Assembly: GCA_003971905.1 (NCBI GenBank)
Contig: RSEE01000020.1
Location: 496,001 to 560,000 of the forward strand
Reading direction: 5' to 3'
From: Moniliella sp. 'wahieum'
Taxonomy: Eukaryota
Length of the DNA: 64,000 nt
Shown: positions 1 through 63,253 of the stretch, in pieces
How the letters are laid out: each line of letters starts with the position of its first letter
Numbering within the stretch: the stretch's first letter is position 1
Notes under the pieces: generated by a model
What the model saw: the letters and a program-made list of their open reading frames with translations, nothing else
Told to the model about the DNA's origin: nothing
Databases searched by the model: none
Made by a program: the position numbers and the translations under genes

Positions 1-1755
1 TGCGTCCGGCGGCGGCAGAGCGGGAAGAAGGGATAGCGGCGGCGGATGGAACGCGGGCCAACCACGGGGGGAATCAACGTCCCACGTCGTCGGCACGCCC
101 TCGGATGGGTCAAACGCTGCTTGGCCACAACTCGATTTCCACATCAACGGCGCCACATGGCCCACTCCATCCACCAGACAGAAGCGGTGGCGGAAAGGAC
201 GCACCCCGCTGGCACGGTCTTGGCCTTGGGTGGCAGCTGAAACGAGGTAGCCGTTGGACATGCGGGCCGCGGAGGATCCCGACCCCGACCCCGAGTTTAG
301 GGTCGACGGTAACGTGGTCGTGCCGGGCAGGACGGCATCGTCGAACGCTGCGCTGGGCGGCACATCGATCCGTAGGCTAGAGTAAAAGGGGAGTGTGGTC
401 ACGTTGCTTGGTGATCCGGCGAGAAGGTTCTTGTACGTCCACCAGGCGTAGTTGCGATCCCTCCTATCGTCCCCGCCTTGCGCCTCTACCTCGCACGTAT
501 AATCCCCAATGGGGAATTGAGCGCGTGTATCTTGGTTTCCTTGCAGTTGCACCACGTCCCGCTCAATGTATTGTCTGTTGAATGCAAGTGGTGCGTCAGT
601 ACTCAGCACTCAATCCTCAATCTCGGTACTCGGTACTCAGTGGGGCTCGCCAGCACTGATCCAACAAGAGCATACGCACTGAAATAACTCGGGCACCGGA
701 AGCGTCAGACGCTGGGCAGCGTACCGGTTTGGCATGGCCAATCCGTACATCCACTGATTTTGATGCGGGCAGGCCAGGTCACTGGTCCGGTTGGGACGGG
801 CGGCGCTAAAGTAGGGGAAGCTGGGACTGTTGGCATGCACATAGCGTACCGTCACATTAGCGTGTCCGGCGGGTGCAACAGGTGGATTGGCAGCCAAGAG
901 GGCGTATCGTGCGACCAAGGCTCCGCCGCCCGAGTGCCCAGCAACGATAATGTGGCGCAGGTTGGGATGAGCGTCGTGTTGGCCAAGAGGGATACCAGGC
1001 CATCGTGTACGTCATACGTACTACACTGTTTTCCCACCGCTACCATCTCGGACGAAGCTTGGGAAGACGTGGGCGCAACCGCATCGGCCCCGCCAACCAA
1101 TCAGTAAAGTTGTTCCATGCCAACGTCTCCGAGACATTGTACCAGTTGGAGTACGTGTGCCGCTGGCCGTTCCGCCCGCGGCACATCGCTAGGCAAGTAA
1201 AAGTTGGGCGCGACCAGCACGGTAGAACTCAGATTGAGCATGGGCGCAATCCCAGCAAACGCTCCTTGAAAGTTGCGTCCGATCCCATGCTGAATCACCA
1301 CGCCGAGCGTGGCATTGCTCGTGGCGCCGCTGGCCGGGTCGGCCCACCGGTCCGAATGCATCAGCGGCACCGTCGCACGCGTCTGACCGGGGCATGGCGC
1401 CCAGCGAAGGAACGTGGCTTGCGGAGGGGAGGGGGGAGCTGCAACGGGCCAGTACCAGACCCGTCCTGGTTCCGGTTCCGGTCCCGTAGACCCACCCCAA
1501 GGCCCACGCCTAACCCCACACCGAGACAGATCAGCAGCGCCAGCAGCAAATGATTGCGCGCCGTTTGCCTCGGCGGGAAGGGGTAGCAACACGTACACCC
1601 TCGCCCTCGCTCAAAGGGCGGTGGTAGCCCAGCCCCAACGTAGACCAGGAGGAGGGCGCGCTGGGGCGAAAGGAAGGGGGGAGAAGCTGGTTGCGGGACT
1701 CGTCCTTGCTCGGCGCATCGAGCTCGCCGAACAAGGCGGAGGACGTGCTGGCCAT
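1..1755 (-). CDS. Membrane-anchored alpha/beta-hydrolase-fold protein (3' end runs to or off the window edge; frameshifted)
   Basis: ATG at 1755 (MASTSSALFGEL). TM segment LLLALLICLGVGLGVGLGVGL, then VVIQHGIGRN, VLVAPNF, nucleophile elbow IIVAGHSGGG (925-939), VRYVHANSPSFPY, CEVEAQGG..RRDRN and a C-terminal His motif VDGVGH. GT-AG intron 575-679 with branch point TACTGAC. Several 1-nt frameshifts are needed to join the pieces. Confidence 0.75.
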
Positions 1756-2459
1756 CGGACAAAAGGTCCTGTCGTGCCCGGCTGGGCAAAGCGGCGGGCG
1801 TCGAGGGGGTTGTCAAGGGGGTTGGCGAGGGCGGGGTCAGGGGCGGGGTCGGGCAGGCTGCGGCGCAGGGTACGGGTTTTACGGGCGAGGGTGCGGAGGC
1901 TCAGTCGCCGAGGGAAGAAGCTAGGATGGCTAGGGTTGCGTTGACGTAACGCGCAATTCCAGCTGGGCCAGAGCAGAGGACGCAGGGCGGTGGGAGAGGG
2001 GAGAGGGAGGGGCCGCAGCCGAAACGCGCCTGGAGTTCTCAACGCCACTTCTTCCGGGGCTCTGTGCCCTGTTGTCTGTGCGCTCCGCGGCGAGTCGGTC
2101 TGGCGGAGATCGGGCGACACGACTAGGCAGTCTGAAGGATCGGACGCTTGAAGGGCGATGCAGGTCACGTCCCCGCATGCGGTTTACGACGCTGGCCCAG
2201 ATAACACGTGCCGAGCGACGAGCGACTAATCGACGATGGATGACGTTTTCTGACAGGGTGATAGTCACGCGTAATGCCGAGGCTTGGCAGCCGTCGCCGT
2301 GGCGTGGGTCGCGATGACGTAATGCGTAGAATCCCCCTCGCCCATCCGCCACGTGATTTCATCGATCATCCTCCACTGGCCCAGGTGCACAGGCAGGCAG
2401 CCCGATGCATCCATCGTCTTCCTCCCTCTCACATCCTCCTTCATCCACGGCCTCCTCCT

Positions 2460-2560: not shown

Positions 2561-2623
2561 GCCCATCCACCCACCAACCGCCACCTGGGCGTGCACACCT
2601 CTGGCCTCCCACCGCCCGGCGCA

Positions 2624-5600: not shown

Positions 5601-6279
5601 GGGAAGGCGCGATGATGCGCAAAGCAGGATCAGATTACGTCCCAGGAAGGTCCAATAGGGTACTGTACAAGGTCAAAGCAGCGTACGATGGCGAAGCTAT
5701 CGTCGTTGGCTACACCCCGCTCCGGCACGGAAGACCAGATGAGGACCCGAACCAGATCGGCGCACTTACCTGCCGCATGGCGTCGGGCGTACAGTTCAAT
5801 GTCGGATCGGTCTCGACGCACAAACCCGCACCCCGCGGTCAATGGCCTCCCATCGGCGCAATCGTCAAGTACCGCTGCTGGGACCTGACTGAAAAGGAGG
5901 GCAAGCCACGACACCCGGTCTACCTGGGCATTGGTGCGTGCTGGATGGGGGGGCGGAGTGCGGAGTGTGGGAGTGGGAGTGTGTGGAGTGCGGAGTGTGG
6001 AGTGCGGAGTGCTGGTACTGGTGCTGACGAGCGAGGGGTGCGGTGTGGACAGATGCAGACAAGACGGTGCCGCAGGATCCGATGTGCAAAGTGTGCGTCT
6101 GCGCCGCCTGCGCACCCAGGCAGCGGAGGGGGCGGATGGCGGATGATGGATGTGGATGCGATGGTGGGCGGAGGCCAGCTGGACTCAGATTCAGATCTGA
6201 AAAGGTCGTACGTAGGCGGAGAATGTGGCGTGGCTGTCGAGGCAGGCAACCGGGGGGCAGCGTGCGGGCAGCCACGTAG
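2624..6279 (+). CDS. ATP-dependent DNA ligase, minimal kinetoplast-ligase/LigE-like type, with SWIM zinc finger (spliced, frameshifted; ends approximate)
   Basis: Ligase motifs in order: [27 protein letters not shown], IIIa YMVFD, IV EGAMMRK, V LYKVK, then OB domain [34 protein letters not shown] motif CTCPEF..RTCRHL at ~4165-4235. Introns 4755-4972, ~5060-5220, ~5494-5541 and 5934-6052. Putative NLS GKRKRP follows the ATG at 2624. Confidence 0.88.
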
Positions 6280-6678
6280 AGGCGGTGGTGACCGGTGATC
6301 GAGATCCATTATCACACTTGGAGTGGGGGGGGGTTAGGGCCATGCCAGTGCTAGTGCGAGTGACGAGTGAGGCTGTGTGGGATGGGCAGCACATATATAA
6401 CGCCACAAGCCGTGTCGGTGTCGGGCGGGCGGCCGGTGGCGCTGGGCGCAGCAGGCAGTCGGCCAGCGTGCTGTGCGGAACAGCCCCTGGCAGGGCTTCT
6501 GTCTTTCTTTGCGTGCCCTCGACGAGCAGGGCAGGCTGACATTTCCAGCGCCAGCCGTCGTGCGTGTCGGTTCTGTCATCTGTCTGTTTGTCTGTTCTTT
6601 CTGCTCTGTCCCGCTGTGTGCGTCCTTCTTGCGTCCCACTTCGCCCCTCTCTCCCTCTCCGCCTCCACCCCCCCCGCC

Positions 6679-11742: not shown

Positions 11743-13176
11743 TTAATCGTTCCTTCATGCTCTTGCTCAGACATCTTACTATTATTCCTCGTTTGATCTC
11801 GGCCTCTTCGTCTCTTCATCAGCTTCATCCTTACTTGTAAGGGTGCTCGACGCTGATGCACGTGACGCATGGTCGTAGGATGCAGTTCGGTTGGTCCACT
11901 GCATCATCGACATCATGCATCATGCATCATCCCCGCCACCCACACCATCGACCAGCCCATGACGTCATGTGCCAGGGGAGACTGGGGTGCTGAGGGCACT
12001 GAGGCCAACTGAGCCCCAGCGCGTCCTGATGCACCTGATGCCTCAGTCACCTAGTCACCAGTCAACGCCTCGGAACCAGACGGCTCCTGCCACTGAGTTA
12101 CCGCCGAGTGTGACATGTCCGTGACATGGGATGGTGCGCGACGGCGCCGGAGACTTGCCGGAGTCCACGGAGTCCGGACAGGTACGGGTGGCGACAACAG
12201 CAGTCTAGCTTAGGGCCTAGGCGCGCACCCCTGGCTCGGCCCAGGGACCGCCTCCCACATACACGGGCCCCCCAGCGTCTCAGAGTAGTATTACCGAGAG
12301 TACACTGAGTACTGGGACCACCAGCTTGGGTGATCGTCATCCGTCAACCGGTTTAGAGGACAGGGTCCACCATGTGACTTGCCCGCGCATATCACGCGCC
12401 CGCACAGGAGCAGTGTACCGCCTTGCGTCAGTCACCTGGGGGGTGGGCGACGGGCACTTCAATTAGGAAAATAGTTCACTGTGACTGAGTAGTAGGCGTC
12501 CCGCGTACCAGGCGGCAGCCATCCGGCGGAGAGGCAGAAGCGATGGGCTGTGGCCCGTGGTCGATGGAGGAAGGGGAAACCGGAGGGTGGATGGGTGACG
12601 CGCGAACGCGGCACGGGGCTTGAAAGTGGCTTGATTTCCAGGCTGGCCCAGGCGCAGTGTGGATTCAACGACCTGTTTAGCCGGCGCCAGGGTGGGCAGA
12701 CGGTTACTAGTAATGGGCATTTGGACTTTGGCTGTCGGCTGCGAGTTCTGGATCTCAGTGTCTGAGATCCGAGATGGCCACGCCAGGCAAGCGCCTGATC
12801 TAGTGGACGTTGGGGGCTGGTTGGGACCATTTCTAGGTTGCGGTAGGTTGCGGCAGTTGGCCACAGGGTGGTGACATTGACATGTTATGACGCCGTCTGG
12901 CAAATTGGTGTGCTCAGCTGAGCGTTGATAACTGATGCCACCCGCTGTATACCAAAACGTCGCCATGGACGATGGACCCGGCAATCCCCGGCCGGCCTCT
13001 GCCCGGCGGCTGCCACACTGCACAGAGCACATCATGCGTCATCGACGGCAGCCCCCATCACACATCCACCCCCCCCGCCTGCCCGTTCGATCTACGCGCT
13101 GTCCCTGGACGCTTCACGCGGCTATAACCACCCCGCCCCCTCTCTCCCTTCCCTCCCTCCAACCCACCTACCCACA

Positions 13177-14522: not shown

Positions 14523-16502
14523 GATCCTACGGGCGCACCATCGTCCATCGAGGTTAACGTCAGTAATCAGTACTCAGCCTTTGAAGCTTGAAGCGCTTGC
14601 CTTGCATGTTGGTCTCTGTTTCAGGACCTGGTCCAGGGAGGCACAGCACAAATCCACAAATCAAATACTTTGGATTCCTTTTTCTTGTTTCTTGCAGCCA
14701 GCCAATTGAAGCACGGGGGAGGGCAAAAACAACAACGACCTCGTCTCCTCCCGCTAGCTGGTTCTCTTGACCCAGTTCTACCGCCCCACCCCCACCCCCA
14801 CTCCTTCTGGGACTGGTTGGGCTCGGAGGGCATTCTCATCGATCTCACTGGGCCCGTCCGGTGCCGGACGGGCTGTTGCGTGTTTGACAAGAACGGTCTC
14901 TTCTTCTTTACTTCTTGCTTCGCTACTTTCTACTTACGTGCCTACTCTAGTATAACTGCCTGCGGCTTATTGTCCCAAGCCGGATGTGAATACTGTCATG
15001 GCATTGCATAACAAATTGGCATAGTAATGTCTGCCTTCCCCAGGGAATCAACAGCATACCTGATGCATATATCATGCAGTGATGCCGCTGTTCAGGTTAT
15101 CTCATCAGGTAGGGGAGCAAGAGATTCATGAAGCCATCTTGGGTAAATAGTATCGACCAAGCTGCAACAACATCATTATATTGCACGACTCACAACTGGT
15201 GGGAACAGCATATACATAAACATATAGATATAGTATCCCTTGCCGCGGGACGAACAATGAAGACTGGGCTTCCCCTGCTCGACCACTGCGCTTGCAGGCG
15301 TGGAGAGAGATTGGCACTCCGATTCGGGATTGGGGACCGCGTTCTGTGCCACATGATCAGGTCTTGGGTGGTCAGTCCCCCAAGGTCACGTACCAGGCGA
15401 GTGGCAGATCGCGGCCTTGACGTAGACCTTGGCCCCCAGGGAAGACAGTAGGCATGCCAGTGGAGCCTGAGGGCTCCTTAGTTAGCATTCGCTACAGCCC
15501 ACCTTCAATTGCCCGTGTCGCGTTGTCGTCCGAAGTGAGAACGAACGCGCGTCTCCCCTTGACTGTGTGAGTCTTTGATCTTTTTGCATGTTAGCGTGCA
15601 ATGGGACAGCTTGGCTGCGACGAACGAAGGACACTATCGGAGATTGGATTGACTATGATAATCAGTGTGCGTGGGGGGGCATCCGTCCATGGTCTGTCAA
15701 TGATGATGAGTAATGATTCTTGGAGAATGACCTTCACGGACCCCGATCCAGATGGCAGGTGGCTTGTGCGGTCTAGCGGCAGAGTCGTTCGGATCCGCAA
15801 CGTGCATCGTGCACATCACTCGTTCACTATAATTCCTATGGAGTCAATTCTTTTTGTGTGGTTGGCCGATCATGCAGTGGGACAAGCCGGCAGACTGGAT
15901 GTTAAGACCGAGGAGGTGTAATTGGACTTGGAACAGTGACTCTCTTCCTAGTGGGATCTACTAGGCTGTGCTTCATCAGTACTCATGCGATTGGAGACGA
16001 TGAACAAAGAAAGAAGGGAATCGGAAAAAAGAGGGCAGGGGCGACGTAGGATGCACACGCTAGCTCGCAGAGCAATGTGCCAGGATTTTGGTTGGTTGGT
16101 TGTGTTGACCGCGTAGTACGGCCATGGTTAAAGAAGGTAGGAGAGTGGTTTGCAAGAGAAGCGATAGTGTCGAGGGATAAGGAAAGGGGCAAGGGAAAGA
16201 GGACAGGACATAGGAAAGGCGAGAGGGGGAAATGTGATGATACGACAGACGATTTGACGAGATGTGACGATGCGATGATGCGAACGAAAATGGGTTGCGG
16301 CTGCCAGAGCACGCGGGGGATGCAGGAACGAAAGCGGAGGAAGCAGTAGAGAGAGGAAAGAGTGATGTTCGGTGAAGATACGACGAGGAGCAAAAAAAAA
16401 GAAAGAAGAAAAAACAAAGAAAATACCCGACGGTTCCCATCCCGACAGTGGTAGTACGTTATCGCACCACCTGCGAAGGAGTTGGGACTGGAGCATGGCA
16501 CG

Positions 16503-17390: not shown

Positions 17391-19843
17391 GGCAGAGAGT
17401 TGGTGGCGTTGTGCAAAGTAAGGTGGAAGTCGGAAGAAAGGGTGCGAGGTGCCAGGTGCGAGATGGGGATTCAGGTGCTGCACTGTTGTGCCCTCCGTCC
17501 TCACACAGTATACTACTCAGGAGTACTCAATACTCAGTTCAGCCAGAACGATCGTCGACTCCTCAGCGCCTCAACCCTTTCAGTCCCCTCAGCCCCGCAG
17601 GCCTCTAGCCCTCAAGCCTCGGCGTTGAAAAGGTCTGAGCCAACGAGAGAAAAAAAACCAAGGTAAACAGCGATCGGCGTGTGCTGGGCACGCAGGCACG
17701 TGCCGCGTCACCGCGTCACTACCTTGTCACTAGTCACCATCACTACTAGGCTTGTACTAGTCACTAGTCACTCTAGTCGCACACTAGTGACTCGTCCTGT
17801 AGCCAACTAGTCGTTCGCACTTGCACTAGTACGACCTAGTCCCCGCGAGCACACACTGGCGGTGCAAAAGTGAAACGCGGGCTGGCATGCGGGGGGAGGG
17901 GCAGGGGTGGCGGTGGTGCTTCTGCGGGTACTCGATAATCGGAAACAGGAGCGATGGCACAGCTGCACAGGCAGTGTGGCCGGTGGCAGTGGAGGGAAGG
18001 GGCAACAGAGGGCTGGGAGGGGCGATGGAGGAAAGAGGGGTTCGAAATCACATGCACAGGGCATTCGCAGGACGTGTGAGCGGACGGATGATGCGATCCG
18101 ATCTGCCCTGTCTCTCTCTTGCCCAGATGGACAGGGCAGAGGAGCCCAAGGTTCAACGTTCACGTCGATGAAGTGGATGAAGGCAGTGAAGGATGGAATC
18201 GAACGAGCAGGGTACTCAACTGAGTACTGAGTCTCAGTACTCATGTACTGATGCAGACGTTCGATCAATGATGCATGATGCATGATGCATGATGCACATG
18301 ATGTTGAACAACCGAACGGGGGTCGGATCTCGGCGGTGTTCTTGCCTCGCCCAGCTTCCTGCTTTCAGCGCAATTCCTTGCATTTACCCGATGCCGGGCC
18401 GGGAGGCACAAGCACAGTGTGACTTCGGCCGCGGCATGCGGGGATCCTCGATATTCGATCATCGATCAACTTGATCGTCGAAGGTCGAAGTGGGCCCGTG
18501 GCGCGTGGTGGCACCTGGCGGCACTAGTCACATGGGCCATGTCGTACGGAGTTTGTTGCTTCAAAAAGTTGTGTGGAAGAAAGTTGTGGAACTTGAAGCT
18601 AGCTTGAAGCTAAAAAAAAAAAGCCTCAAGCAGCGGTATTGTATCTGGATGCATGCCCTCTCTCCGACCTTGGGTCCGATCAACCCCATCCGGCCAAAGG
18701 TCCAAGGCCTACCGATGGCTGATCAAATTGATCCAAATTGATTGTCTCCAGCATGCTCCTCGCGGTGCAGAGAGATAAGTGTTGGAGATCCAATCCCATT
18801 CCACTGGTGCTACTTCCATTTCTTTAGAAGTTACTTCTGTTACTTCATTCGCAGGCAGTTGCCTTGTTGAGTAGGTTGAGCGTTCAAGTTGAACTCAACA
18901 TTGGGGCCACCCGGTCACGGCTGCACCACTACTTAGTACTGACCATTCGCAAAAGAGAAAAGAAAGACAGCGCCATGCCTTGGCGTTGGTGTGGCATGTG
19001 ACATGCATGTGTGGCATGCGAGCATCGCTGAGGCTCAGCGATGAGGCTCATCGCTTAGCCGCTCATCGATCTCATCCATCATTTTCCCTTTTCACGCCCT
19101 CCGGTTACATGTTACAGGTTATACACAGAAGAAACCCTTTCGTGCATAGTCAGCGAATGTTCATTGGTGTCATCCATGCCTTCTACATCGATCATCAATT
19201 TCATCCCCCCGCATATTGTGACCAGTGACTAGTGACTAGTGACTGGCACACATGATGGCACGTGCGTGTGTTGTCACTAGCTTGCCACCTTGTCACTCAC
19301 TAGTCACTAGTCACTAGTCGCTTGACTATAGTCCCTAATCGGCTCGCTACGCTATAGCTGCTACTGCTACGGCAGGTATGAGTATAGCCTGGTATAGCAC
19401 ACGGAAGAGTGACTCTTCAAGCTTCAAGTGAGCTTGAAAAGCTCGATTGGCAAGCTATATTGTTCAATAGCCAGGCTAGTTCAGAGCAAATAGTGGCAGT
19501 CACTATGTTGTCTAGGGAACGCTGGGCAAGGGAGCTGATGAGACTGGAGTCCGGATGGTCCTCGAGGGTGATGCAATCGCACTGGTGGTGATGGTGGTGG
19601 TCTAAGCCAACCAGCAACGCCTAGTACAGAGGAACATCAAGCAACGAGTCGCCACCAGGGGCTAAGCTGCGGAACAGGGAAAAACAGGAGAGAGAAAACA
19701 ACGGAACTCCCAGGCCTGAGGAGGAACTGAAGGGGCATTGGCCAAAGCACGAACCACCCGATGGCTCAACACGAGCGTGTCATCGAATGCCCACAGACTG
19801 CGACCCACTTCTGGCTCATAACCATCAGGTAACATTGGTTTTT

Positions 19844-23690: not shown

Positions 23691-26354
23691 GAGGCAGAAC
23701 TTGAAGAAAAAGGAGTTGAAGGACGACTGATATGACGCGATGACGATTGATCTATTCATCGTCGAGCCGCGTGCATCGTGGCCCATCGAGTATCCTGGTA
23801 TTGATCCAATCTACAGCCATATGCCAGCAAACATCATGCACTCTCCATGCATTCTATCTATCCACTCTTCATCCAGTCCGTATATAGTCAGTTGGTACCT
23901 GAGTCCCACAGTCCTCAACCGTGTCCGTTTCGCCCCCTGCCTCTGATGCAATTGAGGACATGCCAGTGGCTTCGGTCTAGACGCGGCCGCTGTTGCACAA
24001 ATTGGATCAACGTGGGATACATCAGTGGTAGCAGTATATATAGTGCGTCTGAATCACAAGGGTGCACGATGTGATTGTTCCATTCGCCTGTGTTGATGAA
24101 GTTGATGTATTGGCGCACACTTGCAAATGGCGACAGATGAATACACGGATCGTCACATCAGTGATTCGTACTACATCCTATATCCTTCTTTCTCTCTGCC
24201 TCGGGCGCTGCCGCTTGCCTGCTGGCTTGCGGCCAAATCGCCCACACCAACTATATATACTAAGTAGTAGGAGAACGGCCAAGACGAACAGGAGGAAAGG
24301 CGGTATGTTATTGGGTCACTACAGGCTGGCTCGCCTCTATTTAAAGGACTCATCTACTCCGTTGAGCCTAACTGGAGCATGTTTCCTCTTATTATCTGTG
24401 CGACCAAGATCGAGCCCTTCCGTACGGCCGGGAGATCTGTGCGAGTGTTAGTTGGGCTTTGAGTCTCAACAACTGTGATTTTATCCTACTTCAAGTACTT
24501 CGTCTTTGGTCGTGAACCCAAATCAGCTCAAAGTTGAGCTGCCGAATCGAGATGTCAGTGTATTATGTCTGCTGTTTCCTGATCGACCTGATCCGAGTGT
24601 CTCGTTCTCATTTTGTGAGATTCTCCCCTGATGCTTTTGACGTTGTTGTTGCGGGAAGGGGCGGAGGACCTGCCCATTATATTTTGGGCCTTTTTCGTGT
24701 TTGACTGTTGCTGTCCCAACTCTGAACGTGGGGACCTTTAATTTCCCAACAGACCTTTCCCTATTTGGTTTGTGCTCTTGTTGACAGTCATTAATCATTC
24801 GCCTTTGTTCCTTCCTCTTCCCTCAGCATTGTATCTGTGGGTGCCTTAACGTTCCCATGGGTATACTGTACGCCTTTTTGTTCTATGTTCTTCCCCCTAG
24901 AGCGGGTCATTTTGTACCAACATCTCCTTGCGAATACTACATCCTTTTGACCCACCATGCAATACCCGCGTTACTCCCAAGCTCACCCGCAGTCCCACCG
25001 ACCTGCTTCCGCAACCACCCTCTGAATCTTTCCGAATCCTTTCGTCTTGGTATCCTTATCCGTCGAACTCCGTCTAGCTTACAATCTCCTCTGTACGGAT
25101 CTCGCTACCATCCTACAATATAGTTGAGTTTTTCGGGGACAGGACAGGATCTATCCCGCCTTGTCTTGGTCTGGGCCAACCTCCCAGCCAAAACCGTTTT
25201 CAAGATTCTGTGTCTACATGCAGGCGATAACCCTGCTCGTTCCGGTGCATACACTGTCAGCGTGATCTCGTACAGACCATATGGTCACATGGCCAGCCCA
25301 CGTACCCACTCTGTTATCGTCTCCATCTTCTTCTCTCCCTCCTCAACACGCACAACCTTACTTTGCCTTGCCATCCCAGCCGACGCCCCAATCGTGATGC
25401 CTCACCGGTTACCTCTCGTCTCTAGGCTCTGTTCGTTCGGATCCGCCAATAGCATTCAAGCTTCAAGCTCGGTAAACCGTGAGGGGGACCCTCTCTCCTT
25501 CAGGGGAAAGTACCCCTACACCCGGGATGGGGTTCCAGGTCGCCGCCCGCCCATGATGCATGACAGAAGGAGGGCAGAGCGGTGCGGGTGTGTCCCGGGA
25601 ACACCATATACCGGGAATCAAAATACTTGTGGAGAGAACGCGTACTCCAGACCCGCTGGCTCTGTTCCCATCTTTTGTGGTGACGGACGTAACCGGAACA
25701 TGTAACGCGTAGCGATGCTCTGGAGGATGCTCATGCACATGCCAGCGCTCAGCTGAGCCGCATTCTTGCGCTGTATGGGTCCGTCACCAAAATGCCCACC
25801 AACCAACGGCCCGTTGTGTGTTACGCGGTATGCATGGTACGATGTGCAGTATAGCGACCAAAACTCAGTATAGAAAACGGCGTCCCATGTGATATGTGAT
25901 AGGGTTCTTGGCATACTTTACTGTACTGAAGCGTATACCGATGAGTTAGTTACACGTGGCCATCCAAAGGTCTAAGGTCTAATAAAAAGGTCTGGCCCCC
26001 TTCTGGTCCCGGTTGAGCGGCAAGTGAAGCTAGTGAAGGTGAAATGGCCCCACGGGCTTAGAGGTGAGAGATATGGATCTGAGAAGGGTGGGATTTCTGA
26101 TGGGACTCTGCTGTAGTGTTCTTCCGTGCCGGGGTGGGCAGGTCAGTTGCTTACATGTTACTTCTTACATGTTACGTGTTACATCCAACCCGGAAGATAT
26201 CGATCCGGAAGCGGGAGGCCGCAAGCGGGCCGAACTGACCTGTTGTCCCGATCACCGGGCGCGGGTTGCTAGCTATTACATGTGACACGACTCGTCAAAG
26301 CTTTATAACTGAGTCTGTCCTCAGGCCTGAGTACCCCTGGAGTCCCCCCTGAGG

Positions 26355-26416
26355 CCTGAGGCCCACAGTGAACTATTTTACCTGAGGCCCACAGTGAACT
26401 ATTTTACCTGAGGCCC
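26355..26416 (+). repeat. 26-bp tandem duplication CCTGAGGCCCACAGTGAACTATTTTA (2.4 copies)
   Basis: Units start at 26355, 26381 and 26407 (partial). Confidence 0.95.
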
Positions 26417-28026
26417 GAGGCCTGGGGCTTGTGAGGCAGGCTGAGGTGCCTGAGGACTGAGTTATCATGATGATACGCGAGATGCAGCTGACACTGAGAT
26501 TTTGTTGACCATCGAGCATAGAGATAATGAATCATCGATCAACGATCATCGCTCAGATCTGGGGCACCATTGCATCCCGTTGTTTGTAGGGAAGTAGAGA
26601 AGCACGTAGCAACTCGGAGCAAGTCCACGGAGTTCCCCCACACCACCAGAGAAGTACTGGAGCAGACTGGAGCAGTGAGCGTACTGAGTACTGACTAGTG
26701 ACTAGTGACTATACTGACTATACCCTGAGAGCGCTTGGCGTTTTGAGCGTCGTGTGCGCGGCCCCAAAGGGAACCATCAGGCCCAGGCCTCAGGCTGGTT
26801 TCTGACACCTGACATATCAAAGCTTTCGTACAGCTTACCGGTTACCCTTCTGAGCCGTGTGTGTGTGCCTGGGCCGTGCGCAAGGCTCACGCAGACGGCC
26901 AAACTGGGGCCAGCCAGGTCCCGCCACGCGCCACGGGGCTCCGCGTGCCATGTTGTCGGAGGGGATGGCGACCGAAATTGGAACACACACCTGTGGGGGG
27001 AGGCCGGTTGCTGTTGGTCGCCCGGTGCTGGGTAGCTGACTGATGCAATCAATGGTCGTTGATGAATGATTAGGCTTAGATCGGTTCTCGATTACCGTGC
27101 AATCGTGACAGATTGCTTGCTGAAAACCGAAGACTTGAAGCTTGCTGCTTGAAGCTTGATGACTGGATGTCGGATGACGATGACCGTCATCGGTCATTAA
27201 TTCGGGCATCGGCGATTGACGACCCGTTGAGCCGTTGTCGGTGCATAAAAAGCCAGCTGCTGCTGCAAGTGGCTAGCCAAGCTCCAAGTGGCTGTGGCCA
27301 GTGGCCAGAATCGTAATCTTGGCCTCGGCGTCAGCGTCACATCCCAGATTCCACCGAGTCGGAGGGGCCGCTCTCCCCTGCTCTCCCGCGCTCCCCGCTG
27401 CTCCGAACCACGGTGCGCCGGTGAATTCACCGGGCTGGCAGCGGAGTAGAGCGAGCGAACGCAGCCTGCTGAATGTGTTGAACTTCTCAGCGCTCAGCCT
27501 GGGCGGCTCAGCGCCGAAGCTGAACCACCAAAACCCAGCCCGGAAGATTTCCTTTTAGCGCTGGCCCGCCCGTCGGCAATACACATGATCGATGATCGAT
27601 GAACAATCACTAGTCACTAGTCATCCATCCGCAGCGCACTCCTGCCCCTCTCCGGCCTCGACACCTCCGTCCGGCCAAGAGCGACACTTGCCCGCAAGTC
27701 CCGTAGTCACCGCGTGCCGGTTGCACGCCCCCGCCCCCGTCACACACTGGCCACTGGCCATTGCCGGTTCCCCATCGCGCCTTTCCGAGCGTACATTGCT
27801 CCCCGTACTGCGCAGCGCCCACGAAGCCGAAGCGACCGCCACACCCTCACCCGTCTGATCACCGTGATCTGTCAGCTGTGGGTTATCCAGACCATATCGC
27901 ACCTCTCGCTGCCGCGCCCTTTTGGCCCTCATCGCATCCCCGCTTCCCGTCCGCCATTCATCCGTACTGCTCGTAGGCCCCTAGCCAATTCTGCCTCCCA
28001 ACCACCACCGCCCGAGCGCTGGCATC

Positions 28027-31360: not shown

Positions 31361-31700
31361 CGACGCGCTTGCGAAAAAGAATTGCCACAGAAGCTCGGGC
31401 AATCGGTGCAACCCTTTTGGCCATAATTGCAGGTGGGGTAAATGTCCATTCTGGCCCTCTGCACGATAGAAACCAGGTGAATAGGCGCGGGATTGACGAT
31501 CGATGATCATCGATGAAAGGGTGGCACGGCGGACGTGGTTGTGTCAGTATGGCTTCTTGTACCCAACAATCACTCTGGACGTCTTCCTAATGTTTTCCTG
31601 TTCGCTATTCCAATACAGGCCAGAGTTTAGCTTTCAATACAAGAAGAACAAGAAAACCACCATCTCTAGGGTTACAACACTCCGCAGTGCAGCTTATATC

Positions 31701-39180: not shown

Positions 39181-39194
39181 TACTGCACAGCGGA

Positions 39195-42174: not shown

Positions 42175-45100
42175 TATGTGTAACATGTGTTGACAAGTGT
42201 AGGCAACTGTCGCTGGATGATCGATGATCGGCGAATAAGGTTGCGTACTCAGTTGAGTGTTTGGCCAGATCGAAGCAATCAGGCCAACAGTGAAAGTCGA
42301 TTGGCACATTCTCATAACGCTCGCAGTGGGTAACCTGACATTGAATGTATCGGCACCGACGTACTGGTGCCCTCACTCCTCCAACTCCTGCTCCAGCTAT
42401 TTGGCTGGAAGCATGTCCAGCATTGTCAGGGATTATTGGATGTGCACCGGATGTGGTCGATGCCCGTACTCGGCTTTTCGACACAGGGACGCCCGACGTC
42501 ACCAAGATCACACCGGGCACACCGGGTCGCGTCCAATAACCAAGCTGCAACACCGGACACGAATGCAGCAGGCATCATTCGTGCACCATGCGCCCCGGCG
42601 CGCAAGTACGATCTTAGCTGGTTCTAACCGGCGAGCGCTGGCCACCATCTCTACCGGTCCACATCTGACATTAATATACCAGACGTGACCTCCCCTGAAT
42701 TGCACCTTCAGCCCTTCTCTGGATGGCCCCCTGGGTCTCCCACGCAAAATGGCGATGTGGAAGACGCTTTTGGATGGAGGACATGGCTGAAACGTGCATT
42801 GCTCACAGTCGGCTGGCCCGCCTACCGAACGCGAAGCGACAGCGGATCCTCAGTCCGGATCCAAGCCAGAGCGACGATCAACTCGGCGCGCACACAAGTC
42901 TGATGCCTCACAAGAAGACGCACTCCTTTGCAGTCTCCATCTCTGTATTTTGAGGATCTGTCGGAAACAATAATACGTCACCACGGCCCGATTGATAGCA
43001 ATATGTTCGCACCCTTACGAATCCGTTCATTGCCGTCATCAACATCACCCAGTTATGGTTACCAAAAGGTCTATGCGGCGAGAGCTCGCCGAACTGGTCC
43101 TGTCACTGATGAGATTAGCTATTGCTGCGTCGCCACCTTAGCCACCGTTCCACGCTGGAACCATTCCACGCTGGAGTGGGAAAATAATATCTTTTCACCG
43201 TTCCCACGTTGACTATGTGTGATGTCTCAGATGATCTCCACCCGCAAGATGGGGGGATGGATTAACGCGAATCCCACTTCACCATCCGGCTCGCGATGTG
43301 TTGCCAAGCGAGACGACTGTGCTCTAACTATACAAGCGCGTATGTTGGCACGGTCACCTTTATCTCTAGCCGGTCACCTTTATCGCGGGAGCTACTGGGC
43401 ATCGGTACTTCCCTGGGCCTCTGCTGGCGCGACGCGACGTGACTCTGCACATCGCCTTTATTATTTGCCAGACGGCCAGCTGATGAGCGGAGACTTCCAA
43501 TGACAATCTTCCGGGACATTGGGACAGATCGCACACGCAACACCGCGTTCATTAAGCAAAAGGTGGAGTTTTGCGTCAAGGAACAGTTGAAGGGCATGCC
43601 GGTCCGCAAAGTAAAACCTGTCGTTAGCCGTATTCATTGTCGAACTGGTGTCGTTCGCTATGGTCCGTTCGACGGGGTCAGGGTCATTCTGTGACCACCG
43701 ACAATTGATCTGGTCCAATGAGTATCCGGCCGAGTCAGAACACTGCGATGAAGGACGTATATACTACACGGACCAGTGGGGCCCAAACTCCGGTCTCATC
43801 CAACACCTTACTGTTGTCGGAACCAACGTGGAATGGGTCATACGGTTGGCTCACGAGCACACAGACCTGATGGAGCAAGAAGAAGAGATGGTGAAGAAAG
43901 TGTCAAGTCCGCGTATACGACAGCCTAACCTCTTCTTGGAGACAGTCTCGCTTGACGGATTTCGGTTTCAGACCCGTCTCTCAAACGCGCCTGTCCGACT
44001 ATGGATTTATCAGGACGAACGACTCTCGATGATCTCGTCGGTTTTGCTCGAGAACCCAACAGACTTTTCATGACTTTCGTTTGGGGGTCAAAGCAATGTG
44101 AAGGACCAACAAAAGCCTATCTTCAGCGGGGCTGCACCAGTCGTCCCTGCCTGCCCTGTACTCAAGCAGAACTAGCCGCAGATGGACGCCTCATGAGCCA
44201 AACCCCTATCAGTGGGCACAATGTTGTCCTGCAGGCCTTTTGGTCCAATGAAATGAGCTTCCATTTACCTGACGACTAGACCTTGGCCACACCAATTGCC
44301 GATGTTCCCCTGGCTAATCTGAAGACGCATGTTCCCGTAGAACACACCCTTCCGTGCGACGCGAAATCGAATCCCTGCCGTTGGCCAGCTACCGTGAGCG
44401 CGTATAGGAAGGACGCGTGTTGACTAGGTGGTTCTGATAGTAGCATTTGCTAGGAGAAGACACGAAATGGTGTGGCCGGGTGCGATTTTGAAACGGTGCA
44501 AAGTTTCACATGTAGCCGGCAGTTGGCCCCCCGCGCTGCACATCATTGATATCAACGACCTCTTTCGCGCCGTCGCTGACTCATTTTCCTCAAACCATGC
44601 AAACACGTCGCCGATGTCAGCTCCCTGACATCGCTGATATCTTTTACCTCTTTTTGAAATCCGCTGTATGATGTAGGATATGTTGGTAGTTCGGCATCGC
44701 TTCGCACTTGGCGATCCCCCAACATGATGATGCTGTGGAAGCTGCCAAGTCATATGCTTTTCCAGGCTCCGTCTCGTGTTGAGACGAATATTCTACTGCT
44801 GCATATTAGAGTGCCCTCCCCACTCTCCTTCCAGATGGGAATCAAGACCAAGGGAGAGTGCGGCAGATTGTGCGTCGGCTGAGCATTTCATTCCAGAAGG
44901 CGATCGAGGCGAAGGGCCCGAGCAGGAAAAAGTTCCATTGTGTAACGTGGATCGACTTCAAATACAGCGTACAAGATGTGCAAGCGCAACGTGCCAAGAT
45001 CCTGGGCTTCTGCATTGGGGATATTATCACCTGACTGATGCTCGTGCCAGTCCAGAATGTGGATCAAACCTCTCGCTACCTCTGCCTGAAATCCCTCCCG

Positions 45101-48657: not shown

Positions 48658-48680
48658 GGGGGGGGGGGGGGGGGGGGGGG
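48658..48680. repeat. G23 homopolymer
   Basis: Directly visible. The length is unreliable in long-read data. Confidence 0.9.
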
Positions 48681-50674: not shown

Positions 50675-51319
50675 TGTCACGGGCAAAGGCGGGCTTACCG
50701 CGCGCCGTTCACTTGTTACGAGCTACTGAGAACCCGAGATGGTCCGATCCAAGCTAAGGCCCGCCTGCTCCGCACATGCCCAGTAGAGCGTGCTCCGCAG
50801 GCCGATGATGCTCACTGAGCCGAGAATCCATGTGTTCCGCGGTGTTCTGTACCCCTCCGTGGTATTCCGTAGCTTGGATTCCGTGGCATACCGTGTTCAT
50901 ACCTGGCCAATACCGTGCCCATACCGTGTTCATACCGTGCTCGTACCGTGCTCATACCGTGCTCGTACCGTGCTCGTTCCGTACCTATACCGTGTCCATA
51001 CGGTGCTCGTTCCGTACCTATACCGTGTCCATACCGTGCCTACACCGTGCCATGGCCACGGAATGACACAGATTCACCACAACATACCACGACATACCAC
51101 GACATACCACGACATACCACGACATACCACAGAATACCACGGAGGGGCACGGAATACCGCGGAATACCTGGATTCTCGGCTCAGTGAGGATGATGGTTCT
51201 CTAAATTGTAGGTACCGTGGTCCGAAGGGCCGTGCATCCGCGCAACAACAGTCGCCCCCGCCCAAGTCCAAGTCTGGTGGCCTAAACAAGGCCGCCGAGC
51301 TTCCAGTGCCGTTGTGACG
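50675..51319 (+). mobile_element. LTR-like element, family A, interrupted by a MITE
   Basis: Starts TGTCACGGGC and ends CGTTGTGACG. Homologous to 38403-38708 once 50811-51195 is removed. Confidence 0.65.
50811..51188. mobile_element. 378-bp non-autonomous DNA transposon (MITE) with 60-bp TIRs and 7-bp TSD GATGATG
   Basis: TIR CTCACTGAGCCGAGAATCCA.. (first 20 bp perfect, 54/60 identical). TSD at 50804-50810 and 51189-51195. Internal ATACCGTG/ATACCACG subterminal arrays. Confidence 0.92.
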
Positions 51320-51321
51320 TC

Positions 51322-55050: not shown

Positions 55051-55498
55051 GCTTATGAAAGAAGGGGACGAAGAGGAGGAGAAGGAGGTGCACAAAAGGA
55101 GTAGCAGGAAGACGAGTCCAAGGAGGCTGGGTGAAGGAAAAAAAAAGAAAAGTTGTTTGACGGGCACTTTGAAAAATCCAGCGCGTTCTTCTCGGCCCCG
55201 TTCCGCCCATCCGCCTCTGGCGTGTGACACCGGCCTGGCTTTTGTTAGCTGCGCACAAAACATACGATGGTCGGCCATCAAACTCCCAAGTCAAGCCTGA
55301 GGAGATGGAAACAAGCTCTCGTACGCCCATCTGCCATGCTAGCTGGGGGGCACGTGGCTTTCCCTGATGTTCCATCTACTGCCATTACCGCAATCGCAGT
55401 GGGCCTAGAGTGGGTGGGGAGTGTGTACTGTTACAAAATGGGTAGACAAAGGCCAACAATCAAACGACAGCCATCAAGACGCCGACAACGCAGGCGGG

Positions 55499-56339: not shown

Positions 56340-57753
56340 GAAGGCAAATGGATGAGATGTCGTGGTGTAGCGGCGCACGGACGACTGGGAGGGAGGATGC
56401 AGGGGGTATATCGAAGACAGAGATAAAGGGGGATGAAAAGGTAGACTGGGAGCGTGGATGAAACGAATGGAAGGGAAAATGGTGAGGTGGTGGCGAGAAG
56501 TGGAAGCTAGAGGGAGAGGGAAGTGCTGGTGATGGAAACATGCCCTCGATCTCTCTCTATCTCTTGTTTTTTTGTAAAAGATGCGATCGACCACCCCTGA
56601 GCAACGTCCGTATGTGGGTGAAGCCAGCTGCAAGGGGCCAACAGGCCGAGAGGAGTAGAGGCGACTGCGCTCCCACTGTAGGCTGGGCTTGCGGGGTGTC
56701 TACTGCTACTGCCACTGCTGCGATTACCGGTTACCGGTTACTTACCTCTCTCTACTATGTTTTCTGGCCCAACCTTCTCTCTGGCCCAGTCTGTGGTGTT
56801 TTGCCACCATCGGTGCAACGATCATCTGGACCACGATTATGGCGATGAGCCCTGACGCTTCAGCTTCAGTGCACAGGAGGGGCAAGTGCTTAAGTGCGCA
56901 GTGCATCGATCATTGGTATGTTTTCGCGATTCCTTTTTTTGCTTTTCGACAAGCGTGACATGTGAGGCAGAAGCCCCTGAGAAGAGGGACTTATCAAGGG
57001 GCTGTGTTTGAGGCGATCCGTGCGCGCGACGCGTGTTGGATATTCGCGTTTGGTGATCGACAAAGATTAATCGCGATTAATGATCGCCTAATTAATGATC
57101 GCCAATCGTTAATCGAGTCCATCAGTATGTCAATTTCAAGCCAACAAGCTTCACGACACCTTCGCGCGGACGACCGTCGAGCTTGGTCCAAAGCGATCAG
57201 TCGATGAGGTCTACCTGGCCCAGCTCGATCATATTGCACCATGGAGCCTGGCCAGTGCCTGACATCTCAGTTGCGTTGCATTCCCCCAAACACGATTATT
57301 GCCCGAATCTCCCCTTTGCACCCCCTCTGCCTATACTACTTACTGACGTTAAACGTCGAACGCGCAGAGAAAATAACAGCGTCTCATCTCTTAGAATAGA
57401 GTGCCAAAATAAGCCTTAGTGAGCCTGCAGTGGGGTTGCCAGTTTTCTGACAGATTCTGCACCAGACATAACATCCTCCCCCCAATGATCCGGCGTGGTC
57501 TTCACGAGAGGTGCATGAAGAGTAGGCTGTGCCAGTTTGTTCCTCAACCAACGCCGTCCCTCGACGTTGGACATTGATTACTTCGCCATTCAGCTTCGCC
57601 ATTTTCCCCATGGTGCGTGGTGCTCGATCCAATAATAATGTGGCAGTACCAAAACGCAAACGTTCTGACCTGAGAAGCAATACTATAATCGCCAGCCTTC
57701 ATTGATCAGCGATCAGCCCGCGGATGGCGCAGCTAGAATCGCGATCGGGTCTT

Positions 57754-59310: not shown

Positions 59311-60039
59311 CGCGGCGGGAGCAAGCAGGGCAAGTGGAGGGGCTGGGAGAGAAACACAAAACGAGGCGGATCTGGTGGATCGCTTGGGTCTTTGCCGGTT
59401 ACCAGGTTACCAGCCACCAGCCGCCAACCAACTCTTGTCTAACTCAAGTCTGACCGGCTGACCGGCAGCGACGATCACCGGGATCACCGGCCACCACACC
59501 TCCGGTCCAGGCTTCGAGGCCTGAGGTCAGGGGCCTGAGGGTTTGAATCTCTCACACGGGGGAAAAGAAAACTGAAAGATGCAGGATGGTGCTACACTCG
59601 TGGCCCAGCCTAGATCGATGCGCGTGCTATATGATGACCACCACCACCGCCTGCTGCCGGCGTGTTGGCTGGCCTCGTGGTTGGTTTTGGTCCAAGCCCG
59701 CCTTCTACTAGCCCTGCATCCTGCGCTGGCTGGCTGGCTCGCTGGCTCGCTGGCCTTCTCAAAACATGCCATGTGCGTCGGCTGGACCAATATCCGCAAC
59801 CGCGAGCTGGAGCTACGCAACTAAGTACGCCAAATAGTTTCTATTCGCATAGACGACCGACGACGACATGCATCAACACGTGGAGAGGAGGGGGGGCGCA
59901 CAGGGTACGTGTTCAGGACGCGGACGCATAGGGAGGGGAGGCTGGAGACCTGTGCGTCACGATTCACAGAACGCACAGAACCCAAAGGGGACCAGAGCTG
60001 TCAGAACAGCAAAGAGAAGGGGGGGGGAGGGTCCCAAAG

Positions 60040-62506
60040 TTAAAAGTCTTCGCCCGACAAATCACTTTCGGAATCGGAGCTTTCCGAATTGACCAGATCA
60101 TCATGACCTGGGAGCGGAGAGCCCTTCCCCCCGCTCCTACTTCCTCGCCGATACCTTCAAACTGTTGCAACTGAGCCTGCAGCGCTCAATCCGTGCCGTT
60201 TCCCGACTCGTCGAGCGTCTTTCCCTTCAACCCGCCCGTGCCACGTTTGCGTCCATCATTAGCGTTCTTGACTGGTTTGCTATGCGTTGTTCTTGTCATT
60301 GGGCCGGACCACATAGCGGTACAGTCGGTAGAGCGTCCGTGGACTCAAATCATCAATGTCCAACTCAATTTCTTCCTCCTCGACGGTAGAACCAGGCTTG
60401 TCTTCCGCAATGATCTGAGCGCCCCCTCCAGTCGATCTTCAGGGAGAGTGGTAATCTGTTGGCCAGTTCCTTTCTTTTTGTTGTACGTGACCAATCGTAC
60501 ATCCTCAGCATCCGACGCGTTCGATGCACCCACCTGGGACTTCCGAGCACGCGGAGCAGTAGATCTTGGTAGGACGCTGGGTGCCACAGCAACCGAGCCA
60601 GCTGCCGCTTCATCCCCAACACTTTCTCACCTGGCGTGCTCGACCGACGGCCAGAAGGCCCCGTCGGCCTAGGCGCTGCACCAGCACTCTTCTTGGGTCG
60701 CTTAGCAGGCGGCCGCTTCACGCTACCCTCGCTCGTCGCGACGGATTTGCGGCGCTTGGTGCCACTAGGCAAGCTGCCACCTCCGGTGCCACCGGCACCA
60801 TAGCCACTAGGGGAAGAAGATAGGGCGCCTTCGGGCAAGGCGCCGAGCAAGGACAAGGTTGACCTTGCATGGGCCAAGGCACGTGGGGAAGGTTTGCCCA
60901 TCAACCTCCTCAGCTTGACGGAGAAGGAAATCAGCTTGTTGGCGCAGAGCTTGTGCCAACAAGGTGGATTCCGGAACGGATTGTGGTGGTGGGGTGGCGA
61001 CGGTTCCAGAGGGTGAGGCAGGAAAGGCTTAGGCTGGGGTCTTTTGGCCCAAGCTCGATCATACACCTCCTTCACTCGCTGGCCCATGACAAATACGTCC
61101 GATCCAGGCGGGTTGAAAGTAAAGCAGTTGCGAAAGAGAAGTTGGAGATCGGCATCAAATTCATCCGCGTCAGCGTAGCGACCATGGCGCAACTTGTCCT
61201 GCACCTCTGTGAGCGAGATGGGATGTTGAATCATGGCATAGTATGCCGGAGCATAATCCAACGACCGGTCGGGCAGTTCATAAAATACCCACGCCACGTC
61301 CGAGTGGGAAGGCTTAAACAATTCCTCCAGTACCTTGCCGCAAAACTTGAGCTCATTGGCAGCCACTTTATCCCAATGCGCAGCCTCGGCCTCCGATTGA
61401 GCCGCCTCCACCATACGGGACTTGCGCCGCACCTGCCCATTGGAAGCATTGTCGTACAAAACATCTTTTGACGGAGGTGGATGAACGTCCCGTTTAGGTC
61501 GGGTGAGATCAAAGGTGGAGGGAGCGCGAGACGATGCTGCGGCGGCAGGGAGCGTCGAAGTGGCCGAGGGAAGATTGGCAAAGTGCTTGTCAAACACCGA
61601 CTCAAGTACGTCGGCATGGAGCGAGATGAGGTGGGTGGGGCCATTGAACAAACGCGTGTTGGAAAAGACGAGACGAACATCGTTTTCAAACTGGAGCGGG
61701 GTTAAGTACACATCTTTCCGCACGTCGAGCCCCCAACTGGGCGCGGCCTTGACCTTTTCCGTTGGCTTGGTACCTCCCTTGATGGCCGCGGCAGTAAGAG
61801 CGAGCTTAATGTCTATCGTACCAAGGTCCATGGGATGGGTAACAATGGTAGGGTAATGAGGCACGCCCAACGCGATGGGGTCAACGGGGGAGAGAAAGGC
61901 GCGAGCCTCGGCGCGGCCCTTGAGCGCCTTGACGACATTTTGCATAAACTTGACCTGCGCACCGGTGATCTTGATCGGTCGGGGCGCCAATCCGCCAATT
62001 ATGAGGCTCGGGTCCCATGGGGGCACCTCTTTTTTAGGTGGGGAGTGGACGGCAGCAGTGGGTGCTCCTGGGGGAGGTGGGGGTGGAGGGTTTGAAGATG
62101 GAGAGGGAACGGAGGCGGGGGCAGGAGCCGTAATGGGGCTGGATGCAAGTGCAGACGCAGGTGCAGAGACAGACACAGGTGCGGACGCAGGTGCGGACGC
62201 AGGTGCGGATGCGGATGCGGGAGCGGGAGCGGGCTCGGAAGCCGAAACAAGCGCGGGGGCGGAGCGGGGGCGGACGCGGGGCGGACGCGGGGGCGGACTC
62301 GGTTGGGTTGGAAAAATAAGTGGCGGAGGCGACTGGGGTGGGTGAGGTTGTACATCAGAGGCGGTGGTGGGATGGGTGGCGGTGATGGTATTGGTGGAGA
62401 GGGCCGCATCTCCCGGGTCGGCGACAGCGGGTGCTGCCGCGGGCGCCGCGGCTGGATCCGAAGCGGGAGGGAGTGGCGCAGGCAGGGGTGGTGGTGATGG
62501 GCTCAT
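60040..62506 (-). CDS. BDF1: BET-family double bromodomain + ET domain protein
   Basis: BD1 FLSPVDPIALGVPHYPTIVTHPMDLGTI..VFSNTRLFN. BD2 AWVFYE..YYAMIQHPISL..LLFRNCFTFNPP. ET VTYNKKKELA..EIELDIDDLSPRTLYRLY. Acidic SEED-like tail SESSDSESDLSGEDF* (stop 60040), reached through frameshifts. Confidence 0.93.
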
Positions 62507-63253
62507 TCTGGACAGCGTCTACGGGGGAGTGTGGCGCAGCAAGTAGGGCACGTCGGCGTGGGCTGGCGGCGGCGGCGGTGGTGCTGAGGGTGGCGGTGGT
62601 GGTGGTGGAGCAGAGGCAAAAAAAACGCGGCGGCCAGACGCGACGCCAGGACTGAAGCCGGGGCACGTCACGCGTCACGCGTGGGTGTGGCGCGAGCCAA
62701 CGCGGCTGTCACCCCACCGGCACGCTCCCGCACAGGGGCAGTGTGGCTGCGGCTTCCGTGTGACGATGGCATCACAGATGACATCACTGAGCGGCCCCTT
62801 GCAGGGCGGAATGAGGGCGCGCGTTCCGCCTGGCCCCCGTGAGCGAGGCGAGCGCGTAATTTAACTGTTCAGCCCACAGCAAGTACGAAGTACACTACAC
62901 CGTCCCACCATTGAGCGGACGCAGGGCAGGGAATGCCTGCTTCGCCAAGCGGGGGCGACGCGGGGCAGTGGTGGGGGTGAGAATACGGCAGGGGGGAGAA
63001 GAAAGGGCCAACTGAGGCAGGAGCGCAGCATCCCCGATGGTATATGAAGCGATGGATGGATGATCCGGCGATGGATGACTGGGCTAGCAAACTCTAGCCT
63101 CGGGGGTACGTAAGCCGCCGCTTACGTGGTCGTTGTCTTCAGTTGAACATTTGCACTGGGAAGCCCCCGCGCCCGCTCGGCCCCGCCCGCCATCGCCATT
63201 GCTCGTCCGTCTCTGTCCTGCGCCCCACCACACCCTCTCGTTCTACTGCTCTC

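Follow-up and report, generated by a model that had tools for sequence, protein, structure and literature searches.

Palindromic heptamer arrays in the basidiomycete Moniliella sp. 'wahieum': probable excision footprints of a transposon with a 7-bp target-site duplication

The genome of Moniliella sp. 'wahieum', a basidiomycete, carries short tandem arrays with a 7-bp period, in which a TNA trinucleotide alternates with a palindromic 4-mer (the core). These arrays are described here from a window of 64,000 nt (positions 496,001–560,000 of contig RSEE01000020.1, forward strand, in assembly GCA_003971905.1, which comprises 69.5 Mb in 223 contigs). The window also contains a 378-bp element that has terminal inverted repeats (TIRs) as well as a 7-bp target-site duplication (TSD). 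The arrays are probably the accumulated excision footprints of an EnSpm-like transposon with such a 7-bp TSD, left through hairpins of the RAG/Transib type at sites that have been visited more than once. They are mutational scars, not a promoter code.

Heptamer arrays of the window

An earlier sequence-only reading of the window had listed 23 intervals in which a palindrome recurs in a 7-bp rhythm, and the palindrome named was found in this rhythm in all 23. The constant grammar that it proposed (7-bp period, TNA junction, palindromic spacer) holds for 21 of them in the strict form of a 10-mer, TNA-[palindromic 4-mer]-TNA with the same N in both TNA; the remaining two arrays are imperfect, with CGA replacing a TGA (Table 1). 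Several cores are used, as had been said, but their number is 14 in the window and not about ten, and all 16 possible cores occur in a sample of 464 kb (the window plus 40 stretches of 10 kb). The enrichment that had been predicted over DNA of matched composition and over other heptamer repeats is strong: the window contains 50 strict 10-mers, versus 2.4 ± 1.6 (maximum 7) in 100 local dinucleotide shuffles, and of the 38 perfect period-7 runs in the window that reach 14 bp or more, 18 consist of palindrome+1 units of the A....T type, versus none in the shuffled windows, which have a mean of 5.1 perfect period-7 runs. Genome-wide, the 15-mer TCACTAGTCACTAGT has 764 matches and its reversed control three. 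On a parallel with heptamer arrays of Ustilago maydis, drawn in the earlier reading, a literature search yielded nothing.

Table 1. Footprint-type arrays and the terminal-inverted-repeat element along the window (ORF, open reading frame)
Position	Strand	Feature	Evidence
596..606	none	Footprint, core GTAC (TCA)	
11911..11930	none	Three-TNA array, core TGCA	
14560..14594	none	Footprints, cores GTAC (14567) and AGCT (14581-14594)	
17726..17790	none	CTAG-core footprint cluster, upstream of minus-strand ORF starting 17390	
18151..18296	none	Cluster: ACGT (18153), GTAC in both orientations (18221, 18234), four-TNA TGCA array (18268-18296)	
18455..18468	none	Footprint, core TCGA	
19104..19116	none	Footprint, core CATG, TTA centre	
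19224..19428	none	Cluster: CTAG arrays (19224-19244, 19297-19319) and AGCT (19415-19428)	
24788..24799	none	Footprint, core TTAA	
25455..25563	none	Footprints, cores AGCT (25455-25469) and TGCA (25552-25563)	
26151..26183	none	CATG-core footprints, TTA centre	
26348..26363	none	Footprint, core GGCC	
26681..26711	none	Mixed-core lattice AC-TGA-GTAC-TGA-CTAG-TGA-CTAG-TGA-CT	
26835..26846	none	Footprint, core CCGG, TTA centre	
27134..27159	none	AGCT-core footprints	
27486..27623	none	Cluster: GCGC (27486-27498), TCGA (27585-27602), CTAG (27607-27623)	
31493..31515	none	Imperfect TCGA-core array, no strict 10-mer	
42216..42230	none	Footprint, core TCGA	
50804..50810	+	Left TSD, GA-TGA-TG	Identical flanks; 7-mer single in empty host-repeat copies
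50811..51188	+	Non-autonomous TIR element, 378 bp, TIR starts CTCACTGAGCCGAG	Blind TIR/TSD scan
51189..51195	+	Right TSD, GA-TGA-TG	Identical flanks; 7-mer single in empty host-repeat copies
56724..56741	none	Three-TNA array, core CCGG, TTA centre	
59515..59540	none	Imperfect GGCC-core array, no strict 10-mer	
62666..62682	none	Footprint, core CGCG	

The grammar is a stringent one. In the 464-kb sample, TCA-pal4-TCA (a palindromic 4-mer between two TCA) was observed 325 times versus 11.6 expected (28x) and TAA-pal4-TAA 65 times versus 1.5 expected, the motif being enriched 28–43x overall, whereas non-palindromic spacers reach 1.75x, on a par with other trinucleotides. Enrichment is confined to a spacer length of 4, and the fully palindromic arrangement TCA..TGA is enriched merely 3x, so N has to repeat directly. 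This dual requirement, for a palindromic spacer and for a direct repeat of N, argues against the suggestion that the arrays serve a factor reading TGA-N4-TGA/TCA. Most arrays are short (about 1.7 units, with two TNA in 274 of 325), and their ends are asymmetric: the extensions of 268 TCA arrays peak at (0,2) and (2,0) (n=42 and n=35, versus n=13 for (2,2) and n=24 for (0,0)). An array thus tends to extend by two bases at one end and by none at the other, which makes the unit ab-TNA-cd-d'c'-TNA-cd or its mirror image. In this unit the 7-bp site ab-TNA-cd occurs two times, and the link between the copies is the reverse complement of the site's final two bases. Odd palindromes with arms of 6 that are themselves palindromic are centred on TNA in 112 cases and on CNG and ANT in 2 cases each.

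Two arrays of the window, at 27294–27308 and 27745–27760, have TGGCCA+1 heptamers with an A-N-T centre and lie outside the TNA rule; the 464 kb contain no further case. At 37804–37831, two tandem copies of a 13-bp odd palindrome with TCA at its centre differ from the 7-bp type. At least 122 metagenome loci have a CTAG-core array, and motifs with other cores number 37 in 410 kb of this metagenome DNA (0.09/kb versus 0.84/kb here); the TNA-palindrome grammar was found at none of the 122 CTAG-core loci listed.

Junctions between repeated 7-mers

Joints between two copies of any 7-mer X were counted on both strands of 574 kb, at sites where a and b differ from d' and c' and which are thus fully informative (24,471 TNA, 23,984 ANT and 31,130 TNT sites). 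Where X is followed by two inverted nucleotides (2P) and a second copy trimmed to TNAcd, 135 joints are at TNA sites, one at ANT and six at TNT. The same bias is seen, in the same order of centres, for X+2P+bTNAcd (25, 2 and 0), X+2P+X (23, 2 and 2), X+1P+1P+X (14, 0 and 3), X+1P+X (13, 3 and 1) and X+3P+TNAcd (6, 0 and 1); the signal is weak for X+1P+TNAcd (30, 20 and 20), and plain duplications X+X are not enriched at TNA (26, 76 and 70). The 464-kb sample, under a looser filter, gave the same picture, and rarer 8- and 9-bp junctions of the P-nucleotide kind also occur at TNA sites.

These short inverted additions, combined with variable trimming, have the look of P-nucleotides and would have arisen from a flank hairpin that was opened and rejoined. 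The inverted copies lie at the flank ends and form an even palindrome with no base lost, as do P-nucleotide footprints of the RAG/Transib type. In the available excerpt of PMC3299998, hairpin opening by Pso2 and Artemis is placed two nucleotides 3' of the apex, and the predominance of 2-nt additions fits such an opening. Flank hairpins are known for hAT elements, Transib, RAG and Muta1 (PMC5499845, in excerpt). In Ac/Ds footprints, the palindromes have the complement of the border base at their centre (PMC5873905, in excerpt); this is not so in the Moniliella junctions, and RAG/Transib geometry is therefore indicated. The hAT-type joint, with both border bases complemented, has a count of zero at TNA-centred 7-mers in the 574 kb, a scan that did not extend to 8-bp sites.

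Lattices in which two different palindromic cores stand in register number 14 in 574 kb, where chance would give roughly one. The lattice at 26681–26711 may combine left-type and right-type products around an original site AC-TGA-CT.

The 378-bp element and its 4.9-kb relatives

A blind scan of the 464 kb for TIRs with TSDs of 2–11 bp returned a single case with a 7-bp TSD, the 378-bp element of the window. Its TSD was checked against empty sites: the 7-mer GA-TGA-TG is present once in three empty copies of the host repeat (L129, L123 and L039), and the window copy of this repeat lacks 10 bp immediately to the left of GA-TGA-TG. The element is related to 4.9-kb elements that carry a weakly EnSpm-like transposase, and differs from them by internal deletion. 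Five near-identical full-length relatives (4.85–4.97 kb) and one decayed copy were found; end-to-end alignment with L104, a 4.9-kb element, gave 97.7% and 98.4% identity for two of the relatives. The termini read CTCACTG..CAGTGAG, with TIR homology over about 60–80 bp and subterminal tandem repeats of 9–11 bp.

All 15 independent insertion sites are centred on TCA/TGA, with varied outer bases, and 21 of 22 element ends adjoin a TCA/TGA-centred 7-mer, which by chance is found at about 1 position in 20. The exception is an allele carrying two extra bases. At this site (L045 versus L046, position 1501), the target 7-mer and the TIR are separated in one haplotype by two bases, which match the first two of the TIR and equally the reverse complement of the two bases that end the target; they could be P-nucleotides from a cut that had been rejoined. 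Among the insertion sites, L046 has the form of a perfect footprint and two others that of a near-perfect one. Identical 7-bp flanks are found in five of the seven two-ended copies.

Among 15 further exact matches to the TIR 12-mer, 14 were chance matches and L153 alone was a TIR. A 236-bp repeat at 19536–19771 was considered as a source of the arrays and rejected, as it is solo-LTR-like (LTR, long terminal repeat), with TG..CA ends and 5-bp flanks; it has 645 candidates in a first look at the genome, and a related stretch lies inside a 4.9-kb element (L104, ~3150–3420). The repeat-rich part of the window that houses the 378-bp element (44000–56000) has no strict footprint motif.

The superfamily placement of the transposase as EnSpm-like, within the CMCT clade, is a weak one. 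One piece of the gene matches two unnamed proteins, P0121 and P0122 (E 3e-4 among 1.8 billion; tblastn 1e-9), and a second piece matches one of the two (E 9e-6). The named clusters nearest to these proteins are DUF4218, Transposase_21 and Plavaka, with an 11–20% member share, and homologue searches with P0121 and alignment A2 recovered P0121 alone. In a genome paralogue linked to the transposase, an upstream frame matches Transposase_21 below the cut-off. The motif-like strings CRPC, PVEPMH and SVHNTLHWAD..W...E occur in the expected order, CRPC and PVEPMH not being significant alone. TIRs and subterminal repeats are those of an EnSpm element, but the five intact copies have a 7-bp TSD instead of 2–3 bp (2–5 bp in the clade), and the ends are CT..AG instead of the 5'-CA..TG-3' of most members. 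The element works like a member of CMCT, yet departs from EnSpm in its TSD and termini. Three further genes of the Transposase_21 type with long open frames were found (L146 on C17, L147 on C34 and L148 on C127), with no convincing TIR or TSD within the flanks examined; they are possibly decayed or domesticated copies.

Turnover between haplotypes

Two haplotypes are present in parts of the assembly. Contigs C4 and C16, alignable over about 98 kb at 89–97% identity, were taken as a haplotype pair because no second haplotype of the window was returned, by searches in which few candidates were scored. Of 20 clean 7-bp indels between them (9 more, in gappy alignment, were left out), 14 obey the rule, one obeys it at another centre and five do not. 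Of the 14, 11 have a 7-mer that is not palindromic as their short allele; in the other three, a unit has been gained or lost on a site that was already palindromic. In one repeat family, an extra unit is found in one copy and is absent from two others. Motif occurrences turn over rapidly: of 157 compared with the other haplotype, 76 are identical, 20 substituted, 28 have small gaps and 33 are absent. Purifying selection would keep divergence below that of flanking DNA; 39 of 1190 motif columns are substituted (3.3%, versus 4.9% in the flanks), and the neutral expectation, at half the flank rate given ascertainment, is about 2.4%. The scarring is recent and has a neutral look. The promoter or chromatin code that had been proposed does not fit this fast turnover, the lack of conservation beyond neutral expectation or the use of all 16 cores.

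The pair differs by 2,830 substitutions in 94 kb, so that some 200 substitutions go with each rule-following 7-bp indel. If the mutation rate is assumed to be 1e-10 to 1e-9 per base and generation and the haploid genome to be 35 Mb, this corresponds to one scar per 5,000–50,000 generations, a rate that could be within the supply of a few mobile copies.

A mechanism and its alternatives

In the mechanism proposed, the element would insert at ab-TNA-cd and duplicate it, as seen in the intact copies with their exact 7-bp TSDs. Excision would then close both flanks into hairpins exactly where the TSD ends, with no base lost, as in RAG and Transib, a position deduced from the even palindromes at the junctions. 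A host nuclease of the Pso2/Artemis type would open these hairpins about 2 nt past the tip (the position given in the excerpt of PMC3299998), leaving 4-nt palindromic overhangs, and end joining would usually keep one overhang and drop the other, giving abTNA-cd-d'c'-TNAcd or its mirror image, a net gain of 7 bp; the gains of 8–9 bp that are observed may follow from less trimming. Such a scar recreates a perfect palindromic target, and repeated visits, perhaps with some slippage, would build the arrays and the mixed-core lattices. The suggestion that a hairpin mechanism seeds the arrays is supported, the hairpin being best taken as one that the transposase makes at the flank; the junction spectrum and an element with a matching 7-bp TSD point to this and not to a strand switch in replication.

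Several observations weigh against this interpretation. The transposase gene is fragmented in both copies read, which is due to assembly errors or decay, no piece of it has a Pfam match, and two motif-level comparisons were not significant. Two of the seven two-ended copies, L103 (C11) and L111 (C38), are flanked by unequal 7-mers, each TCA/TGA-centred; transposition of one end combined with a neighbouring deletion, recombination of one copy with another, or joins made in assembly may be the cause. A comparison of two haplotypes does not tell a gain from a loss, and none of the loci in hand pairs an allele containing the element with an allele containing a footprint. Five full-length copies and a decayed one face some 49,000 arrays (extrapolated from 325 in 464 kb). 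Lastly, a TAA/TTA centre is found at none of 15 element sites, versus 83 of 546 footprint 12-mers (chance of 0 in 15, ~0.09); other or extinct families may therefore contribute scars.

The last two of these points would be accommodated if a domesticated or stray transposase or recombinase, or abortive integration, duplicated and hairpinned the TNA site directly as a mutator acting across the genome, the visible elements merely sharing its specificity; the three additional Transposase_21-type genes with no recognisable TIR or TSD in the flanks examined also speak for it. This is unlikely, given that the junctions require two complete 7-mers with P-nucleotides in between, the product of insertion, gap filling and excision. 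Cut-and-paste transposition gives one scar per hop at unchanged copy number, and with 14 rule-following 7-bp indels to 2,830 substitutions, no more than a modest rate is required.

Replication slippage or template switching at quasi-palindromes, producing heptamer microsatellites favoured by fold-back, is very improbable as the origin of the arrays. The tail of longer arrays and the 82 same-core triples in the 574 kb could have grown in this way, although repeated visits could also account for the triples, and the three unit changes on palindromic sites between haplotypes would fit it. Slippage does not explain why palindrome+1 units with other junctions are not enriched (112 TNA against 2 CNG and 2 ANT) or why plain duplications are not enriched at TNA, and 8- and 9-bp junctions with inverted inserts are not its products. 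Nor can it make the mixed-core lattices, for which events of both types, left and right, must have struck the same site.

Binding arrays under selection, as a promoter or chromatin code for a TGA-N4-TGA factor, are very unlikely: the motifs do avoid long open frames (at least 250 codons; 31 of 390 motifs in 37% of the sequence) and do cluster in large intergenic stretches (27 of the 50 strict motifs of the window in two 2-kb bins), but depletion in frames is expected anyway because a 7-bp insertion breaks the reading frame, the motifs are substituted and lost between haplotypes as described above, and the binding protein would need to tolerate every one of the 16 palindromic cores while rejecting non-palindromic ones. 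Accessible chromatin and re-targeting by the transposon may explain both the avoidance of frames and the clustering. A 3-bp TNA duplication with 2-bp element stubs, in the style of Harbinger or mariner, was rejected because the core follows the flank and not a fixed TIR end.

Comparison with known systems

The comparisons that follow rest on the available excerpts of the papers cited. The CMCT clade (EnSpm/CACTA, Plavaka, ESTA, Transib; PMC12730594) has motifs in common with RAG1, TSDs of 2–5 bp and CA..TG ends. The Moniliella element resembles it in having TIRs, a length of ~4.9 kb and subterminal tandem repeats, in transposase pieces that are nearest to Transposase_21/DUF4218/Plavaka-like clusters and in a CACTG two bases inside its termini; it differs in its 7-bp TSD on TCA/TGA and its CT..AG ends. 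With RAG1/2 coding joints and the donor hairpins of Transib (PMC5499845) it would share a flank hairpin and repair by end joining, as judged here from junctions, and P-nucleotides that are mostly 1–2 nt long and form an even palindrome at the flank end. Unlike in these systems, the Moniliella flanks are two copies of one TSD, so that the joint becomes a 7-bp-period repeat, and the scars are heritable and have accumulated to ~0.7 per kb.

TSDs of 7 bp have been reported for hAT7 and Kyakuja (PMC12730594). The footprints of Ac/Ds, a hAT element, are also stereotyped, with short P-nucleotide insertions between TSD copies (PMC5873905), and the fungal hAT7 has the same TSD length (PMC12730594), but Ac/Ds palindromes are odd and centred on the complement of the base adjoining the element (PMC5873905), a junction type not seen here. 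A hAT dimerisation domain was not found in the genome, in a search without a positive control. Kyakuja (KDZ) elements have 7-bp TSDs in basidiomycetes but, in contrast to the Moniliella element with its TIRs and CT..AG ends, have CA..TG ends and no TIRs (PMC12730594); a KDZ transposase (PF18758) had no match in the genome, again in a search without a positive control. The mechanism is of a known kind, and neither the element nor the genome-wide scale is described in the literature found: no account of genome-wide footprint arrays or of an EnSpm-like element with a 7-bp TSD was retrieved, subscription papers being largely outside the coverage.

Other features of the window

Pfam matches identify genes for a protein with a DNA ligase OB domain (5612–6298), a Kelch protein (7266–9607), a DEAD-box helicase (29874–30428), an Ssh4/SPRY protein (33826–35751) and a double-bromodomain protein (60365–62506). 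The Ssh4/SPRY protein has at most 64% identity to its relatives; in a one-gene tree it groups towards Ustilaginomycotina, on a long branch and with an unsure exact position. Many gene frames of the window appear broken and the haplotypes differ by hundreds of 1-bp indels, which together suggests long-read errors. ARAGORN called no tRNA in the window. Multi-copy repeats of ~100 bp lie at 31701–31803, 31982–32090 and 33184–33297, with many matches of 90–97% elsewhere in the genome; a perfect (AAGCAG)15 is found at 23598–23690 and a repeat with a 33-bp period and about six copies at 39283–39518.

Implications

Laboratory revertants normally yield excision footprints in small numbers; in this natural genome no class of heptamer repeat appears to be commoner, and target choice, the opening of hairpins and end joining would be recorded in vivo tens of thousands of times. 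A more far-reaching proposal, an unlikely one, is that most 7-bp indels of this fungus come from an undescribed EnSpm-like lineage that has a 7-bp target and RAG-type chemistry and has built a self-reinforcing lattice of tens of thousands of scars in accessible intergenic DNA or, in its boldest form, that a domesticated RAG-like mutator acts largely without moving whole elements, some lattices having been co-opted as regulatory sequence. If the arrays are indeed footprints of this kind, they would be indirect evidence for RAG/Transib cleavage geometry in an EnSpm-like transposase, would extend the TSDs of the CMCT clade to 7 bp and would reveal a route to 'microsatellites' without slippage.

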